From IMG/VR virus record IMGVR_UViG_3300020392_000004: a DNA stretch of 64,000 nt; one strand, written 5' to 3'. The number at the start of each line of letters is the position of its first letter. Positions within the stretch are counted from its first letter, which is position 1. A program made the position numbers and the translations under genes. Source of the stretch: a virus. Positions 1,967-9,546 of this stretch are shown here, piece by piece. A model generated the notes under the pieces. It did no database searches, was not told where the DNA came from, and worked only from the letters and a program-made list of their open reading frames with translations.

Positions 1967-1974
1967 TATTTATA
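1967..1974 (-). promoter_or_regulatory. T4-type late promoter TATAAATA for gp18
   Basis: tatttata on + strand, in the gp17-gp18 intergenic gap. Confidence 0.85.
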
Positions 1975-1993: not shown

Positions 1994-3598
1994 TTACCAT
2001 TTAATCTCCACATCATTAGAATTAGAGAACCAACGGTCACCTTCATCGTCTACGAAAGTGGTCTCTTCGGGTTTTTGACCCCCGAATACTCCTGCTGGAA
2101 GTAAATCGTCTTCTATCATCTTCTGTTGTTCTGCATATAACAGGTCTTTCACCTGTGTATCTGTTAAATGATAGAAGTAATCAGTTGTTATAAACCATGA
2201 AAATAATACTAGATTCATTACCATATCGTCATGATATCCTCTGTCTGCTTCAAATGAATTACCCTTATTGACAAATGTCATTAGCTCTGTTATAGTAGGT
2301 CGGTCTATTACAGATAGACGGTCTTCCTCTAATAGTTCTTTTAGAGTAGAACACCCAATTCTCTTAATTTTTTTGTTGACCGATATCCCTATATCTTCTG
2401 ATTTTAACTGTCCTTGAGTAAAAACATTTGGATACTCAATATCATAATGCAATTGTGTTGCAACAATTCCACCCTCTGCATTATTTTCTATAATTACAAG
2501 AGCCTCGTTAAAAGGTCTTGCATATTTATTTATAATATCAGGAAACAGCATGGGACTTATCATGTCGTCTCTGAATGTGCAAACTTGTCTGAATGGTTTT
2601 GTTGTGACATCAAAAATACTAAATGTAGAGAAGTCCATACCTCTTCCTTTTGCAACATCAACTGTGCAAACATAATTATGACCCTCTACTGGTTTCTCAT
2701 ATAGACTTACATTGTCTTTTGACCATTCGGGGTCTACTGCTCTCATTCCTAATAAAGTATTAGAATTAATTAATGTATTACCAGTTCCAAGGAAACTATT
2801 ACCATACTCTTGTTCAAATTGTGCCTCTGATGTGTTTGCAATGGTCATTTCCTTCCATTCTTTATCACGGCCCGGCACATCATACCAGTTTATTATAAAA
2901 CTCTTGTATTCGGACTGCTCGTGGACAGCACTCTCATATATTTTATGGAACATATTACCCACACCATTTGCAGTTGAGGTTATAATAACCTTTGAATCTT
3001 TACCCGAGGTAATAACGGGATATGTTGCAGTATAGAATGTCTCTGCATCGTCCACGAATGCAAACTCGTCCAAGTATAGTAAATTGATTGACATACCACG
3101 AATTGAACTTGAACTTGTTGCAGCTGCAACTACTTTTGAATCATTTGAAAATTCTATAGAACCTTTGTTGAGAATCTTAACGCCTGGCTGTAAAAAGAAT
3201 GGAACAGACTCTAACATGGTCACGATTCTTGCAATCATTTCTCTTGCAATTGCACCTTTGTTTGCAAGAACAGCTACAGTGACTTCGGGGTGAAACAATA
3301 AGAACCATAATAGATATGCACACGAGGTTATTGATTTACCACTCTGTCTACTTGCAAGAACTACATTAAATCTATTTTTATCATAGAAGTTTATAAGGTC
3401 TTCTTGATAACCGCGAAGTTTAAATGGAACCATACCTTCATCAAGAGATATAATCTGTGTATAATTCTCTATGAAATGTGCTGGGTCTTTGGAACATTTA
3501 AGATACTCCTCCATTTGTTCAGAGGTATAAGCAGTATCAACACCAGCTCTCTTAATGAGTGTGTTTCCTAGATATCCTTCATTAGTCGGTTTAACCAT
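1994..3598 (-). CDS. gp17: Terminase large subunit
   Basis: Walker A-like ASRQSGKS, Walker B LLYLDEFAF, STANG coupling motif, nuclease motifs VDVAKGRG and HDDMVM. Confidence 0.97.
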   Translation of the reverse strand: MVKPTNEGYLGNTLIKRAGVDTAYTSEQMEEYLKCSKDPAHFIENYTQIISLDEGMVPFKLRGYQEDLINFYDKNRFNVVLASRQSGKSITSCAYLLWFLLFHPEVTVAVLANKGAIAREMIARIVTMLESVPFFLQPGVKILNKGSIEFSNDSKVVAAATSSSSIRGMSINLLYLDEFAFVDDAETFYTATYPVITSGKDSKVIITSTANGVGNMFHKIYESAVHEQSEYKSFIINWYDVPGRDKEWKEMTIANTSEAQFEQEYGNSFLGTGNTLINSNTLLGMRAVDPEWSKDNVSLYEKPVEGHNYVCTVDVAKGRGMDFSTFSIFDVTTKPFRQVCTFRDDMISPMLFPDIINKYARPFNEALVIIENNAEGGIVATQLHYDIEYPNVFTQGQLKSEDIGISVNKKIKRIGCSTLKELLEEDRLSVIDRPTITELMTFVNKGNSFEADRGYHDDMVMNLVLFSWFITTDYFYHLTDTQVKDLLYAEQQKMIEDDLLPAGVFGGQKPEETTFVDDEGDRWFSNSNDVEIKW

Positions 3599-4485
3599 TA
3601 ATAAAGATTCCCATATGAATATTGATTAGGACTATCATTCCATTCATTATGGAAGTCCCAATAATTATGTAAACACCAGTGTGTAGGTTCTCTAAAATTA
3701 CTAAACAAATACTTGTTATCAAATCCTACTTCCCAACCACAACAGTTGTCACTGTAGAATTCATATTCTAATCCACCGTAAAAGTCTCCATCGTAAATAA
3801 GTTTCATATCTGCTATGTTATCTCTAGAGTCGAACCACCTTTGTCCAGTATATCTTGAACCCATACCTTCTATTATAGGTTCCATTAGTTTTAAAAACTC
3901 TGCTGTATAAGGTTCTATCACGCCACCATCGTCTGTCATAATTTTCTTTTCTTCTTTTAATTTGATATCATACAGTTTGACTGTGTTCGGATATAATTTA
4001 TCGTAGACACCTCTGTCTTTAGCAGCGTCACATAGGTCTATCAATCCTTCTTGATATACATTGTTTCCAATCATTTCATGGATATAGATATCTGCTTCAG
4101 GCCATTCAATATCTAAAAAGTCTCCTTGAATTACTTGCCACTGTGGCATTCTTCCTTTCAAATAAACAATAGGGTGAAATTGTGCATCAACTCCGATACA
4201 CTTTTTTGCACCAAAAAAATCTGCAAGAAATAACAATGCACCAGGCCCACAACCTAAATCACATACAACTTTACCTTCTGCATTTGCAGCTAAAAAATCT
4301 GCATATGCTTTTTGTCTCTGTGAATCTCTAATCATTCTCCAATATCCACCTGCTCTTTTACTCATGGTTTCAACTGCAAGAAACCACGCAGGGTGTGATT
4401 CGTCCACATGTGCTGGTGCAATCGGGCACTTATCGTTTTCTACTTCTTGTCTTAATCTTTGTAAGTGTTGTTCACGGTTATTCAT
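3598..4485 (-). CDS. SAM-dependent methyltransferase with protein-arginine methyltransferase (PRMT) signature motifs
   Basis: MIRDSQR (MxxDxxR), motif I VCDLGCGPG, post-I CIGVD, double-E loop EMIGNNVYQE, LYP, C-terminal PTHW. Confidence 0.8.
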   Translation of the reverse strand: MNNREQHLQRLRQEVENDKCPIAPAHVDESHPAWFLAVETMSKRAGGYWRMIRDSQRQKAYADFLAANAEGKVVCDLGCGPGALLFLADFFGAKKCIGVDAQFHPIVYLKGRMPQWQVIQGDFLDIEWPEADIYIHEMIGNNVYQEGLIDLCDAAKDRGVYDKLYPNTVKLYDIKLKEEKKIMTDDGGVIEPYTAEFLKLMEPIIEGMGSRYTGQRWFDSRDNIADMKLIYDGDFYGGLEYEFYSDNCCGWEVGFDNKYLFSNFREPTHWCLHNYWDFHNEWNDSPNQYSYGNLY

Positions 4486-4876
4486 CTTTATTTTTCTTCA
4501 AGAACTTTTGCAACTCACTTGTCGAACCGACATATAAATGGTTGTGTTGAGTCTTGATAGAACTATCCTCTTTCTCTAAATCCTTTAATTTTTTCTGTAT
4601 GTCAATAAGTTTCTCTGCCGTCTCTGAAACGGTTTTTATCAATTGACCAGCAACCTCATATGCACGAGGGTGTTCTGTTTCTTTGGATAGTTCTAATATG
4701 CCGTCTATGGCGTCTTGTCCTCGTTCTACGAGGTCGTAGAGGTTCTCACGGGCATATTTGTAGTCAGTTTCAATGTTCTCTGTCCTAGCAGGAACTTTGA
4801 CTAACTTGGTTTCTTGTTTGATATCAGAATTGATATCTAGAAGATTATCTAATGTTTTATCTATTTCCTTTGTCAT
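4478..4876 (-). CDS. gp16: Terminase small subunit
   Basis: DYKYARENLY...HPRAYEVAGQLIK...YVGSTSELQKFLK typical of marine T4-like gp16; position between gp15 and gp17. Confidence 0.92.
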   Translation of the reverse strand: MTKEIDKTLDNLLDINSDIKQETKLVKVPARTENIETDYKYARENLYDLVERGQDAIDGILELSKETEHPRAYEVAGQLIKTVSETAEKLIDIQKKLKDLEKEDSSIKTQHNHLYVGSTSELQKFLKKNKDE

Positions 4877-4878
4877 AA

Positions 4879-5931
4879 TTAACCGTCACTGGTTCTATCC
4901 TCTGAATATGTAGAAGTAGCTCCTTCATCATAAAAAGTCACTGTCTCTGCAACAACAAATGTGTCGTTTGGTTGAACTGAACCAACAAATTTCAGTTTTG
5001 TTCCAGCAGATATAGTAATTGGATTATTCAATACAATTGATAAATTATCAGATGCAATGGACGAAATAGTTGGGTTTGTTGTTAAATTAGTTCCAAACAC
5101 TTCGTCTCCAACTCCTATCTTACTATTTATTGCACTAGTAAATGACACTGTTGCACTGTTAGATACTGCATTATTTGTAGTTTCTGCAAACGCAGGTTCA
5201 TAGTGTTTAACTTCTTTGACTAATCCACTTCCCTCTATCTGTGAAGTTGTGAATCCTGCTTGTAGGTCTGTATTAATATAATCTCTTTCGATAACATTTT
5301 TAATAACCTCACCTGTATATACAGGGCCAAAGAAATAAGTTTTCATAGTAAACTCTAAAGAATATTCTAATACTCTTCTTTCTTCAAATGTTCCCTCGTA
5401 TTGGTCTTCCATTGATACACTATTCAATGTAATAGGAACATCTCTAGTTTCTGACATTGAATCAACCAACTTCATAGTCACCGTATACTCGGGTTGAAAA
5501 TATGGTAGTATTTGTTCTACTATTTGAATTGCATCTATAACATTTTTTGCAAGTATTGATAATGTGAATGTTAAGTTATACGGAGCTGGTTGATATTGGA
5601 AACCTCTCTTTCCAACATCAGAAGTTTCTAAATTTGTTTTTTGTGTTCTGATTAATTTGTTTTGTTGTCTAGTTGAATCGTATTCTAATCCAGTCATTTC
5701 AAAAGCCATACGAGGTAAAGATATAGAAGTCACACTTCCGTCTCTTGCTTTCAAGTCGTCTTGCAATCTCAATAGAAACTTTTGTTTAGGCCCGTATGAT
5801 ATAGGAACTAGGTTTTTAGATAAAACAGTTCCGTCTGATTGTATCTTACTGGTGTATATCTGATTAAATAAAGTTCCGAATACTGAAATCGACCTTTTTA
5901 TAGTTTCATTGTAAAAGAAAGTTCCAAACAT
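4879..5931 (-). CDS. gp15: Tail sheath stabiliser / tail terminator
   Basis: MFGTFFYNETIKRSISVFGTLFN, VPISYGPKQKF, LPRMAFE, QIVEQILPYFQP motifs. Confidence 0.93.
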   Translation of the reverse strand: MFGTFFYNETIKRSISVFGTLFNQIYTSKIQSDGTVLSKNLVPISYGPKQKFLLRLQDDLKARDGSVTSISLPRMAFEMTGLEYDSTRQQNKLIRTQKTNLETSDVGKRGFQYQPAPYNLTFTLSILAKNVIDAIQIVEQILPYFQPEYTVTMKLVDSMSETRDVPITLNSVSMEDQYEGTFEERRVLEYSLEFTMKTYFFGPVYTGEVIKNVIERDYINTDLQAGFTTSQIEGSGLVKEVKHYEPAFAETTNNAVSNSATVSFTSAINSKIGVGDEVFGTNLTTNPTISSIASDNLSIVLNNPITISAGTKLKFVGSVQPNDTFVVAETVTFYDEGATSTYSEDRTSDG

Positions 5932-6791
5932 TATGGTTCTCCAAATGGATTGATTTCAGATAGGTCAAGATAACTAGTATCCTTATCTTCAAACTCTTTG
6001 TTTTGTGCAGAAGATAAGTTGTTAAATGTTAATACATCTGTAATAGTTTGTATAGTTCTTGAAGTTCCTGATGTCTCACCAATTATTGTATCACCAACTG
6101 ATAGAGTTCTTGTATTGTCTTTGATTGTAAGAACCCTTGTATCTGACCTCCATAGTAATACTTCACCAACAATACTTTCTGTTCCACTGATAGTAGCTTT
6201 CACATTCTCTCCTACTGTATAGTTTCCTGAACCAGTATTCATGGTCATTTCTATTGTATAAGCTTGGTCTGATTCCACCAAGTCTGCAGCTGTTCCAGTA
6301 TCGAAATCCTCTCCACTGTATTCGAACAATGAACATTTTAATTTGAAAACAAATAATTTTCCTAACTGGAAGAAAGGGTCTTGGTCTTCTACAAATCTAA
6401 TTTCAAACATGGAACCTGACAATGGGAAGTATATTAAATCCCCTTCATTAGGTCTTAAGGAAGTTGCAAGGTTTGAATCAAGTGAAACAAATCTTTCCCA
6501 TGTTCTCAAACTGATTATGAAACTTGCTTCTTCTTGAATTTGAACACCAAACTTTGATACTAAATCTCCTTCACCTTCAAATCCTTCTGTATTTTCTAAA
6601 TACATTTCTACAGAATATGCGTCACCGTATCTAGATTGAACATCTTCTGTAAAAATAGTATCTTCTTCTATAATTTCTCTAGGAAGATACAAAACATCAT
6701 GACCATAGAATCGTAAAGATTCAACAACTAAATCTTCATAAAGGTGTTGTTCTGTGTTAACAGAATGGTTAAAATATACATTTGTAGGCAT
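5931..6791 (-). CDS. gp14: Neck protein
   Basis: EQHLYEDLVVESLRFYG, RPNEGDLIYFP, PFFQLGK, C-terminal EINPFGE. Confidence 0.93.
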   Translation of the reverse strand: MPTNVYFNHSVNTEQHLYEDLVVESLRFYGHDVLYLPREIIEEDTIFTEDVQSRYGDAYSVEMYLENTEGFEGEGDLVSKFGVQIQEEASFIISLRTWERFVSLDSNLATSLRPNEGDLIYFPLSGSMFEIRFVEDQDPFFQLGKLFVFKLKCSLFEYSGEDFDTGTAADLVESDQAYTIEMTMNTGSGNYTVGENVKATISGTESIVGEVLLWRSDTRVLTIKDNTRTLSVGDTIIGETSGTSRTIQTITDVLTFNNLSSAQNKEFEDKDTSYLDLSEINPFGEP

Positions 6792-6795
6792 TTAT

Positions 6796-7611
6796 CTATC
6801 CCATTAAATCCATAACTGGAAGTTCATAATTCAGTCTAGATTCTTCTTCTAATTTTGTTATTTCCTCTTGTGCTTGTGATTTCATTTCAGCTGCACTCAA
6901 TGTCACTCCGCCTGGCAATGCAATACCGTCAAATTTAGATAAGTTCTCTGCCCATTGATATTTGACTAATGCAGTTGCATATCGTTTCAACCACATATCA
7001 TTAAAGATATCTGTGAAGTCTGTTGGGTCAATTTTTCTATGACATTCTATGACTATAAATTCACCAGCCGAGAAACTTTCAATATCTGCATCTAGATATA
7101 ACCTATTCATATTTTGTTTATATCTAATAGGAGTTTGACCTGTCAATATCATATCCATCATAGAAATGTGTTGTTGAACCATTTCGTAATGTAATATGTT
7201 TGTTGAGGTTAGGTCGTATAAATCATTCAACCTTAATTGATATCGAAGGTCGAACATGTTTAAATTACTTTTATCGTTGAACGGAAATATTCTATTTACG
7301 GCTAATACAAATTCAGGTAATACAATATAATTTTTTTGTTGTTTGACTATTTGATTATCATAATCATGTGTTCCTGCTGAACTCTCTACAAACTGTTCGT
7401 CTGTTCTCATAGTTGCAAGATTATCTGATGTTAGTTGGTGTTTAAGATAAACACGCATAGAACCGTCATAATGATACTCTTGGAAGTATTGTATTGCTTC
7501 GTCCATTCTATCGTCAAATTGGTCATCGTCAACATTGATTTCTAGAACAGGGGCTCCAAGTTTTCTCTTTATGTATTCTTTAAGTGTTGATTTAGAGTTT
7601 GGTTTTGCCAT
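6796..7611 (-). CDS. gp13: Neck protein
   Basis: LKEYIKRKLGAPVLEINVDDDQ, WLKRYATALVKYQW..NLSKF.GIALPGGVTL. Confidence 0.94.
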   Translation of the reverse strand: MAKPNSKSTLKEYIKRKLGAPVLEINVDDDQFDDRMDEAIQYFQEYHYDGSMRVYLKHQLTSDNLATMRTDEQFVESSAGTHDYDNQIVKQQKNYIVLPEFVLAVNRIFPFNDKSNLNMFDLRYQLRLNDLYDLTSTNILHYEMVQQHISMMDMILTGQTPIRYKQNMNRLYLDADIESFSAGEFIVIECHRKIDPTDFTDIFNDMWLKRYATALVKYQWAENLSKFDGIALPGGVTLSAAEMKSQAQEEITKLEEESRLNYELPVMDLMG

Positions 7612-7636: not shown

Positions 7637-7644
7637 TATTTATA
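7637..7644 (-). promoter_or_regulatory. Late promoter TATAAATA for the gp13 operon
   Basis: Exact motif in the intergenic gap upstream of gp13. Confidence 0.85.
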
Positions 7645-7928: not shown

Positions 7929-8618
7929 TTACTTTGTTAAATTGAATGTTTCGTCTAAATCAAACAAGTTCCAATCTTCATCTATTTGACCTACTTGGTG
8001 ATTTCTCTGATTACCTATGTGATTAGTATTAACATTAAATGAAATAGAGTATCTATCTTTATCAGTTCTATTAGGTTCAACCATATGCATCATGGCACTT
8101 GGAAACATAATTAAACTTCCTGTGACAGGTTTTACTGCATAACTTTCTATACACCTTGCATTTGGTGGGTAATCTGATACAACCTTTGGGTCTGTATTGA
8201 TAGCTAAAAATTGACCTTCGTCTCCTTCTGAATGTATATAAAAAGCTCCACTATACCAACAACCATTGTGTAAGTGAGGTCTATTCCATGCAAGGTGGTC
8301 GTTTATATTTGCCCATGAATTACCTATATCTATCTGAACTTTTCCTCTATCGATACCATGGAATCCTGCTATCTCATTATTTAATATGTCTTTTAAAACT
8401 CTCATCAACTTAATAAATGTAGGGTGATTTTCACAACCGTCATTTGATTGCCAACCAGTATAGGCATTTGATATCTGTCTTCCAACTGGGTCTTTTTTTC
8501 TCATACCATCTATTGCGTCCTTCAACATTCCACAATATTCACTTGTAATCCTACCACTCTCTACAAGGTTTTCCTCATAACAAATAGTTGGAAATAGTAA
8601 TCTAATCCCTTTCTTCAT
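7929..8618 (-). CDS. Putative 2OG-Fe(II) oxygenase (TIGR02466-like)
   Basis: SWANIN...PHLHNGCWYSGAFY...GSLIMFPSAMMHMVEPN...RYSISFN. Confidence 0.85.
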   Translation of the reverse strand: MKKGIRLLFPTICYEENLVESGRITSEYCGMLKDAIDGMRKKDPVGRQISNAYTGWQSNDGCENHPTFIKLMRVLKDILNNEIAGFHGIDRGKVQIDIGNSWANINDHLAWNRPHLHNGCWYSGAFYIHSEGDEGQFLAINTDPKVVSDYPPNARCIESYAVKPVTGSLIMFPSAMMHMVEPNRTDKDRYSISFNVNTNHIGNQRNHQVGQIDEDWNLFDLDETFNLTK

Positions 8619-9546
8619 GTCCGTCCCAGTTTAAGTCTGTCAAACTTCTTTGTTTCTCTTTGAAATCCATTTCTAATTGAACTTCTTCTTTCTTATGCAT
8701 AGGGCATTCGGGTGGAGGATTTTCACCTTCTGCATATAGATTAGCTTTATTAGTTTTAAATCCACCTTTTCTATAACCACCGATATTCAGTCTATCGTCA
8801 ACTGATTTATAAGCACCAGTTTCCATATCTATTAATCCTTGTTTCACTTGCCATTTTTGCATTGATTGTTCTGATATTCCATGGGTATTAAACCAGTCTT
8901 TAGATTCTCCATAAAAATAAGTTGATTTCCATTCGTCTCTTTTATAGGGAACTATTTGTAGTATAGGTGTTCCTTTCGGTATAATAAAAGAATGTTTTAC
9001 TTTAGGATAGAATATAATTTGTGCATTATCCATACCTAAATTAAAAGTATCTGTATCAATTATACCTTGCCATACTGCAAAATATTTATTTTGAAATAAG
9101 AATGGGTCTATGAAAAAAACTGAATAGCCTGGAGGTGTAGTTATGTTCCAAAAGTTTCCCATTTTAAATGCATCTTTTACAGGCCCTTCGTCACCCATAT
9201 ATTCAAATGAATCTTGGAACTGTGCAGCTGGGTGAGTTGGTGACGCTTGCATATTATCACTTCCGTCTAAATGAAATGGGCTAGTGGTCATTCTTTCACT
9301 TTCTTCTGGCCAATCCCAATCAAATCCATTCATAACAGGAATGTCACATGCAGTAATAATATACCAACCAGTTTTTAAATAATCGTCCATGGCTGGACAA
9401 GACCTAACAGTTTGAGCTCCCTCTCCTCTATGGTCAATTCTAATCTTTGCAGTTTTCCACCATTCAGGCATGTATGTTTTTGCAACAACAGGCTTGAATC
9501 TCTGAAAAGCTTCGGGATTATATGTTCTAAATTCAATTGTTGGCAT
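8602..9546 (-). CDS. DUF6065-like hypothetical protein
   Basis: PEWWK, TVRSCPAM.D...GW, W.ITTPPGYS.FF..P, GIIDTD, IPKGTPILQIVP motifs; sits between two oxygenases. Confidence 0.7.
   Translation of the reverse strand: MPTIEFRTYNPEAFQRFKPVVAKTYMPEWWKTAKIRIDHRGEGAQTVRSCPAMDDYLKTGWYIITACDIPVMNGFDWDWPEESERMTTSPFHLDGSDNMQASPTHPAAQFQDSFEYMGDEGPVKDAFKMGNFWNITTPPGYSVFFIDPFLFQNKYFAVWQGIIDTDTFNLGMDNAQIIFYPKVKHSFIIPKGTPILQIVPYKRDEWKSTYFYGESKDWFNTHGISEQSMQKWQVKQGLIDMETGAYKSVDDRLNIGGYRKGGFKTNKANLYAEGENPPPECPMHKKEEVQLEMDFKEKQRSLTDLNWDGHEERD

Follow-up and report, generated by a model that had tools for sequence, protein, structure and literature searches.

A predicted PRMT-fold methyltransferase gene between the terminase genes of uncultured marine phages

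Arginine methylation by protein arginine methyltransferases (PRMTs) is regarded as a hallmark of regulation in eukaryotes. Here, we analyze a DNA stretch of 64,000 nucleotides from an uncultured marine T4-like phage (IMG/VR record IMGVR_UViG_3300020392_000004, hereafter the window), in which a gene for a PRMT-like, S-adenosylmethionine (SAM)-dependent methyltransferase lies between the genes of the small and large terminase subunits, TerS and TerL. The PRMT-like assignment is well supported by sequence comparison and structural modeling, and we regard the protein as a new, minimal variant of the PRMT fold carried by phages. That this compact protein actually functions as a protein arginine methyltransferase is our prediction from the sequence and the model, to which we assign a probability of roughly 60%.

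The closest described systems are the eukaryotic type I PRMTs, of which PRMT1/Hmt1, PRMT3, PRMT6, and Trypanosoma brucei PRMT1 were compared (PDB entries 1or8, 1g6q, 2fyt, 5lv4, 6dnz). The phage protein shares with them the Rossmann motif I, the acidic post-I position, the equivalent of R54, the 8-residue spacing of the double-E loop, L-x-P after this loop, a THW preceded by an F-S-N/T segment, and the two-domain fold. It differs in that it is encoded by a bacterial phage, is only 17–24% identical, and has 295 aa against approximately 320–350 in the PRMT core; its C-terminal barrel is shortened and escapes detection by Pfam PRMT_C, and no YFxxY motif can be recognized. PrmA, the bacterial L11 lysine/N-terminal methyltransferase, is likewise a class I protein methyltransferase with a similar motif I, and it is prokaryotic. 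However, PrmA lacks both the double-E pair and THW and has another substrate-binding domain, and structurally it resembles the phage protein in the Rossmann domain only.

Modification of arginines is known in phages by other means. In T4, the ADP-ribosyltransferases Alt, ModA, and ModB modify arginines of host proteins, and Alt, which is synthesized late, is packaged into the head and injected along with the DNA. Alt thus sets a precedent for modification of the next host by a late-expressed enzyme, while its chemistry and fold are unrelated to those of the PRMT-like protein. In bacteria, SznE/StzE, encoded in a biosynthetic cluster, carry out SAM-dependent methylation of a guanidino nitrogen of free L-arginine (PMC11705231); we liken them to the phage protein by the described chemistry. 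Finally, MepM-dependent methylation of the mycobacteriophage tail protein Gp34 can be essential for the infectivity of the progeny (PMC13445384). MepM, in contrast to the gene considered here, is host-encoded, belongs to an unrelated family, and targets an ELS motif instead of arginine.

Motifs and predicted fold

The sequence-only reading of this DNA had listed a set of PRMT motifs, and all of them were found in the stated order, namely, M51-x-x-D54-x-x-R57, D76-L-G-C-G-P-G82, E137-MIGNNVYQ-E146, L164-Y-P166, and T268-H-W270. The spacing between E137 and E146 is eight residues, the same as in PRMT1. In PRMTs, both the double-E and the THW loop, together with helix alpha-Y, form the arginine pocket (PMC4860837).

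A phmmer comparison with all PDB sequences yielded mostly PRMTs: PRMT1/2/3/4/6/8 account for about 40 of the 60 listed matches and for all of the highest-ranking ones. The best match is a Trypanosoma PRMT (E 3.6e-9), with yeast Hmt1 at 7e-8 and PRMT3, PRMT1, CARM1, PRMT6, and PRMT8 among the others. The respective alignments cover residues 46–182 and place E137 and E146 on the double-E glutamates, R57 on the arginine contacting the SAM carboxylate (PRMT1 Arg54), and M51 on Met48 of PRMT1. Profile comparison by hhalign of 29 phage-family members with six canonical PRMTs gave a probability of 99.85% (E 7e-31) for the catalytic domain only; residues D76–G82, D100, and R57 match PRMT positions in both the phmmer and the hhalign alignments, D76–G82 falling in motif I, which reads V-L-D-V-G-x-G-x-G in PRMTs. 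A hidden Markov model (HMM) search of 1.84 billion representative sequences retrieved 579 relatives, 33 of them with E < 1e-10. Roughly the first 26 are short proteins of the phage type, after which the canonical PRMT C-terminal domain appears, being present in 75 of the 150 best. The resemblance seen in these alignments is judged to be far beyond chance.

In a MAFFT alignment, the T268-H269-W270 column coincides with THW of an Entamoeba type I PRMT (P0039), W270 being conserved in at least 90% of sequences, and the series G-W-E-V-G-F-D ... F-S-N-F ... T-H-W falls on the strand, S-T-S, and T-H-W segments of this PRMT. The positional equivalence of THW is based on the MAFFT alignment and on the span of the structural alignments described below, as hhalign stops short of the C-terminal region. 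Standard family databases are less informative for the window protein: a Pfam scan yielded only generic methyltransferase matches, all below the threshold, NCBIfam yielded generic matches far below it, and PHROGs contain no family. The KEGG label K11434, which we take to be the PRMT1 orthologue group, is present on one Tara annotation of a family member.

The AlphaFold2 model built from a 30-sequence alignment has a mean predicted local distance difference test score (pLDDT) of 88.4 and a predicted template modeling score of 0.87. When it was compared with PDB using Foldseek, the top 50 matches were all PRMTs. Structural alignment with 48,161 representative chains again gave PRMTs at ranks 1–15 (Z 10.2–15.4), including PRMT6, 7, 3, 9, 2, 10, CARM1, PRMT1, and PRMT5, with PRMT6 at Z 15.4. 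The best structure outside this group is DIMT1 (Z 8.8), followed by PrmA (Z 8.3–8.6), Trm5, and others. Hence, the best matches are PRMTs and not the small-molecule or nucleic-acid methyltransferases that the sequence-only reading had named as the opposite outcome. The PRMT alignments comprise 193–225 residues and span positions 40–294, compared with 127–182 residues for the listed non-PRMT methyltransferases, and therefore the C-terminal domain contributes to the match. In the model, this domain appears as a reduced version of the PRMT barrel, and its helix pair sits where PRMTs, whose activity needs a head-to-tail homodimer, carry the dimerization arm. The PRMT-like identity proposed earlier is thus backed by sequence, profile, and fold. 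The features of the locus are collected in Table 1.

Table 1. Coordinates of the PRMT-like gene, its domains, neighboring features of the window, and selected variant forms in related loci.
Feature	Position	Strand	Description
PRMT-like SAM-dependent methyltransferase	3598..4485	minus	295 aa, ATG start, TAA stop
N-terminal helical extension	residues 1-45		of the PRMT-like protein
Rossmann catalytic domain	residues 46-180		motif I D76-G82, post-I D100, double-E loop E137/E146
Shortened C-terminal domain (predicted)	residues 165-295		helix pair 192-214, T268-H269-W270
TerS, small terminase subunit (gp16-like)	4478..4876	minus	132 aa; PF11053 E 2.9e-8, phrog_445 E 1e-43
TerL, large terminase subunit (gp17-like)	1994..3598	minus	534 aa; PF03237, PF17289, phrog_5989
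T4-type late-promoter word TATAAATA	7637..7644	minus	just upstream of gp13 (ORF 6796-7611)
Next TATAAATA word	1967..1974	minus	upstream of gp18, tail sheath gene (start at 1928)
Short forms in the TerS-TerL slot	L037:1331-1900, L029:4016-4612, L044:4010-4612, L057:3191-3739, L094:1666-2202		
Oxygenase-PRMT-like fusion	L053:2936-4705, L066:2960-4702		580-589 aa

Genomic context and family distribution

The gene is coupled to both terminase genes, as had been proposed, and this can be read directly from the sequence. The last 8 nt of TerS, ATGAATAA, overlap the methyltransferase start, so that its ATG (4485–4483) lies within the final TerS codons, and the last A of the methyltransferase TAA is the first base of the TerL ATG at 3598, yielding TAATG. 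The earlier description of the gene as inserted between the terminases holds for its position. As a statement about a recent event it is misleading, since TerL proteins are 77–97% identical across the loci and the methyltransferases 27–90%; the gene is an old resident of a deep phage lineage.

Late expression, also suggested by the sequence-only reading, is plausible. The words TATAAATA flank the unit, and no minus-strand terminator-like site was detected between gp13 and TerL or between the two words. Overall, the window contains 12 such words against 7 expected, 11 of them on the minus (coding) strand. By analogy with T4, the word upstream of gp13 is a likely start of a late transcript covering gp13-gp14-gp15-gp16-methyltransferase-gp17.

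Homologues come from marine metagenomes (Tara and others), close ones being 90 and 69% identical and distant ones 28–45%, and their loci share the gene order gp13-gp14-gp15-TerS-methyltransferase-TerL-sheath-tube-portal. A scan of IMG/VR produced at least 97 related stretches, from which 80 loci were kept; together with metagenome loci, 97 loci were examined. These are not independent of each other, and as the search patterns were built from nine closer members, the set favors the terminase-slot subfamily. The gene lies between TerS and TerL in 88 of the 97 loci, directly in 83 and with one extra open reading frame (ORF) before TerL in 5; it is located elsewhere in seven and has no assigned position in two. 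In the five loci with an extra ORF, the latter encodes 191–192 aa and follows a short form of the methyltransferase (e.g., L045:4564-5139, L049:1445-2023).

Among relatives from other genomic contexts, one is situated near the genes for DNA ligase and peptide deformylase. Another, 42% identical, lies 2.6 kb upstream of an unrelated TerL (L022:1562-2320, 4906-6204), with no similarity to the window TerL detected by tblastn, and this suggests gene transfer between phage lineages. The latter copy adjoins another methyltransferase gene (phrog_24759).

In one clade, the PRMT-like domain retains the double-E pair and SHW and is fused as the C-terminal half of a protein of 580–595 aa encoded between nrdA and nrdB; hence, the family is not tied to packaging. 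The N-terminal half has invariant H-x-D and distal histidine residues and is modeled as a 2-oxoglutarate (2OG)-Fe(II) oxygenase (pLDDT 89). In fold comparison, it is matched best by two protein prolyl hydroxylases, PHD2 and Pseudomonas P4H, the latter solved with EF-Tu, followed by small-molecule oxygenases. The same oxygenase is also very common as a stand-alone marine-phage protein of about 320 aa without a Pfam family; its PHROG label, 'ferrochelatase', is probably a misnomer. As both halves of the fusion most resemble protein-modifying enzymes, a protein substrate is weakly favored.

The family is restricted to contigs of uncultured marine phages. A tblastn search with the window protein and two distant members detected no family member in 50,697 GenBank phage records, the sole matches being weak motif-I similarities to prmA of Acinetobacter phage. 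In the nearest GenBank phage by TerL, Phage C48C1 from Kyanoviridae (55% identity), TerS directly overlaps TerL and there is no such gene. The best matches in viral structure databases come from uncultured phages, namely, the unnamed protein D6PIP9 and a generic 'AdoMet_MTases' protein. Genome contigs representing 185,579 species yielded one locus, a short form in an 11-kb contig of a Flavobacteriaceae metagenome-assembled genome. It is flanked by phage gp15, TerS, and TerL, and is no evidence of a cellular homologue, since the contig is most likely binned phage DNA. Literature searches on phage, viral, or prokaryotic PRMTs retrieved nothing relevant, and no paper on a phage PRMT was found.

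As for the origin of the family, recent capture from a eukaryote was considered and rejected: identity to canonical PRMTs reaches at best about 20–25%, and the phage family itself is deeply diverged. A tree of the catalytic domain (141 columns) had too little resolution to show where the phage clade belongs among PRMT types or to point to a donor.

Conservation, selection, and degenerate forms

Residue conservation was counted over 64 distinct family variants. Nearly invariant are the SAM-site residues, P129, D132, and P166. The three motif-I glycines are kept in 63 variants, position 100 is E or D in the same number, and R57 is present in 51. Both E137 and E146 are also present in 51 variants, and in 48 they are accompanied by H269/W270, at an overall identity of about 30%; the remaining three combine the double-E pair with SSW or NNW. 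Among the 52 variants possessing the C-terminal domain, [S/T]HW is found in 48. Conversely, 13 variants lack both the double-E pair and HW, and 12 of these are forms of 178–200 aa in which R57 and the entire C-terminal domain are missing as well. No variant has HW without the double-E pair. Such coupled retention and loss is expected of residues forming one functional pocket.

The short forms keep motif I, have H-K/N-G in place of H-E-M, and end with a conserved tail ...R-A-F-K-E-L-I-R-L-G; judging from these sequences, they may be pseudo-enzymes or SAM-binding proteins. If they are pseudo-enzyme derivatives, the double-E-less forms would be comparable to the trypanosome PRMT1 prozyme. The remaining variant (L024:2611-3420) is full-length (269 aa) and occupies the terminase slot, with E137 replaced by G, E146 by D, and THW by TSF. 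This ORF, retained intact, seems to encode a catalytically dead paralogue.

The ratio of nonsynonymous to synonymous substitution rates (dN/dS) for the window gene is 0.16 (dS 0.34) and 0.26 in comparison with two relatives, indicative of purifying selection and hence of a functional gene, while in the neighboring gp15, TerS, and TerL it is 0.035–0.09. Across the lineage, TerL remains approximately 80% identical while the PRMT-like protein drops to about 30%. This is an old, fast-evolving accessory gene, occasionally discarded, and its evolutionary profile is more typical of host-interaction genes than of core assembly genes.

Possible function and competing explanations

If the window protein is an arginine methyltransferase, the Rossmann domain would hold SAM via motif I (D76–G82), the acidic post-I residue D100, and R57, by analogy with solved PRMTs to which it was aligned. 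The guanidino group of the substrate arginine would be gripped between E137 and E146 and covered by H269/W270, and the methyl group would be passed onto a terminal guanidino nitrogen. Predicted transcription in the late gp13-to-gp17 unit and translational coupling to both terminase subunits lead us to expect the enzyme during head filling. The substrate would most likely be a protein arginine, either in a phage late protein involved in packaging or the virion, in a host protein at the late stage, or in a protein of the next host cell after carry-in.

The earlier suggestion that arginines of the 'zipper' fibre units are methylated remained without support. Homologues of these fibres are encoded in all five long related records, including a 70-kb record whose sole copy of the enzyme is a short form without the double-E loop and the C-terminal domain; this is weak evidence, the 70-kb record being only about 38% complete. 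The broader scenario, in which marine phages run eukaryote-style arginine methylation during head filling, with a minimal PRMT co-translated with the terminases and directed at packaging, virion, or next-host proteins, and with the short forms as pseudo-enzymes, is speculative, and we consider it rather doubtful as a whole. If true, it would provide the first example of a bacterial virus in which a PRMT-type arginine methylation system has a defined role.

Several observations weigh against the proposed activity or its link to head filling. The hhalign match stops by residue 178, and PRMT_C (PF22528), which is detected in canonical PRMTs, was found neither in the window protein nor in any phage-type member. 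With only 25 residues following THW, the protein lacks the last strands of the PRMT barrel. Before M51, no YFxxY of helix alpha-X can be recognized at the spacing seen in PRMTs; a possible equivalent is W34-F35 of the N-terminal helix, but it lies 4 residues further away, and the N-terminal region is wholly absent from most family members. The gene evolves 3–5 times faster than its neighbors, and its decay to double-E-less forms in several sublineages implies that it can be dispensed with or can take on another role. Some members of the family are encoded outside the terminase slot. In gp15, TerS, and TerL, we found no arginine column that tracks the intact versus degenerate state of the enzyme, although this covariation test has low power, as the degenerate forms come from few lineages. 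Finally, PRMT-like enzymes acting on the free amino acid arginine are known, namely, SznE/StzE (PMC11705231).

We also weighed other activities of a SAM-dependent enzyme. It is unlikely that the protein is an RNA or DNA methyltransferase, e.g., an rRNA adenine methylase or a packaging-time modifier of DNA, resembling PRMTs only through the Rossmann fold. Weak Pfam matches to RrnaAD in 11 of 30 family members (best E 6.9e-8) and also to FtsJ, the JGI label 'predicted RNA methylase' on one family cluster, and the rank of the rRNA dimethylase DIMT1 as the top non-PRMT structure are consistent with such a role, and the inter-terminase position could suit a DNA-directed activity. However, PRMTs are ahead of all nucleic-acid methyltransferases by more than 6 Z units and approximately 50–70 aligned residues, they occupy the top of the PDB sequence list, and the sequence contains no (D/N/S)PP(Y/F/W) motif IV. 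Moreover, outside the SAM site, conservation is highest at the double-E pair and HW, which serve no function in nucleic-acid methylases and are lost together. A protein methyltransferase of the PrmA type, acting on lysine, the N-terminus, glutamine, or histidine, is very unlikely. PrmA and PrmC are well known in bacteria, and Pfam PrmA matches were found in 21 of 30 family members (best E 7.6e-11), but these matches are limited to the motif I region, and canonical PRMTs match likewise. In the window protein, PF06325 aligns at residues 69–101 only, with E 0.046, below the cut-off, and thus full-length PrmA was not detected; the NCBIfam prmA models score 13–15 bits against cut-offs of 183–269. 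The PrmA structures stay at Z 8.3–8.6 against 15.4 for PRMT6, and the protein retains the PRMT-spaced double-E loop and THW.

A metabolic or auxiliary enzyme methylating free L-arginine or a small guanidino compound would have its precedent in streptozotocin biosynthesis (PMC11705231), and the shortened C-terminal domain could reflect lost contacts with protein substrates. The oxygenase fusion is compatible with this role as well, given that methylation followed by oxidation is also seen in small-molecule arginine pathways. Against this, the gene resides in a late structural and packaging operon without biosynthetic neighbors, the fused oxygenase is structurally nearest to the protein prolyl hydroxylases, and the closest solved relatives all act on proteins, which makes the small-molecule role quite improbable. 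Least credible is a mainly non-catalytic scaffold or terminase regulator with the methyltransferase fold as a relic. In 23 loci, the terminase slot is still occupied by intact ORFs for the short forms or for the full-length form lacking both the double-E pair and HW, implying that something besides arginine methylation is kept there. On the other hand, the window protein and 47 other distinct variants have retained all SAM-binding and arginine-pocket residues at about 30% overall identity, and dN/dS is well below 1.

The closest solved relatives found for the phage protein are all eukaryotic. It represents an abundant and well-defined marine-phage family with a minimal PRMT fold, whose arginine pocket is intact and which holds a constant position in the packaging operon. 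The family could open the way to post-translational modification of a new kind in phage assembly or in the takeover of the host, provide a compact (235–300 aa) natural PRMT scaffold for structural and mechanistic work, and help to show how far the PRMT fold extends in evolution beyond eukaryotes. The intact, degenerate, and truncated forms found in one slot constitute a natural comparative series.

Oxygenase genes are also present near the late unit. Upstream of gp13, the window encodes a 2OG-Fe(II) oxygenase (PF13759; 7929–8618, minus strand), overlapped by a 314-aa ORF without a Pfam family (8602–9546, minus strand), and two or three oxygenases (PF13640, PF13759) occupy the same place in related loci.

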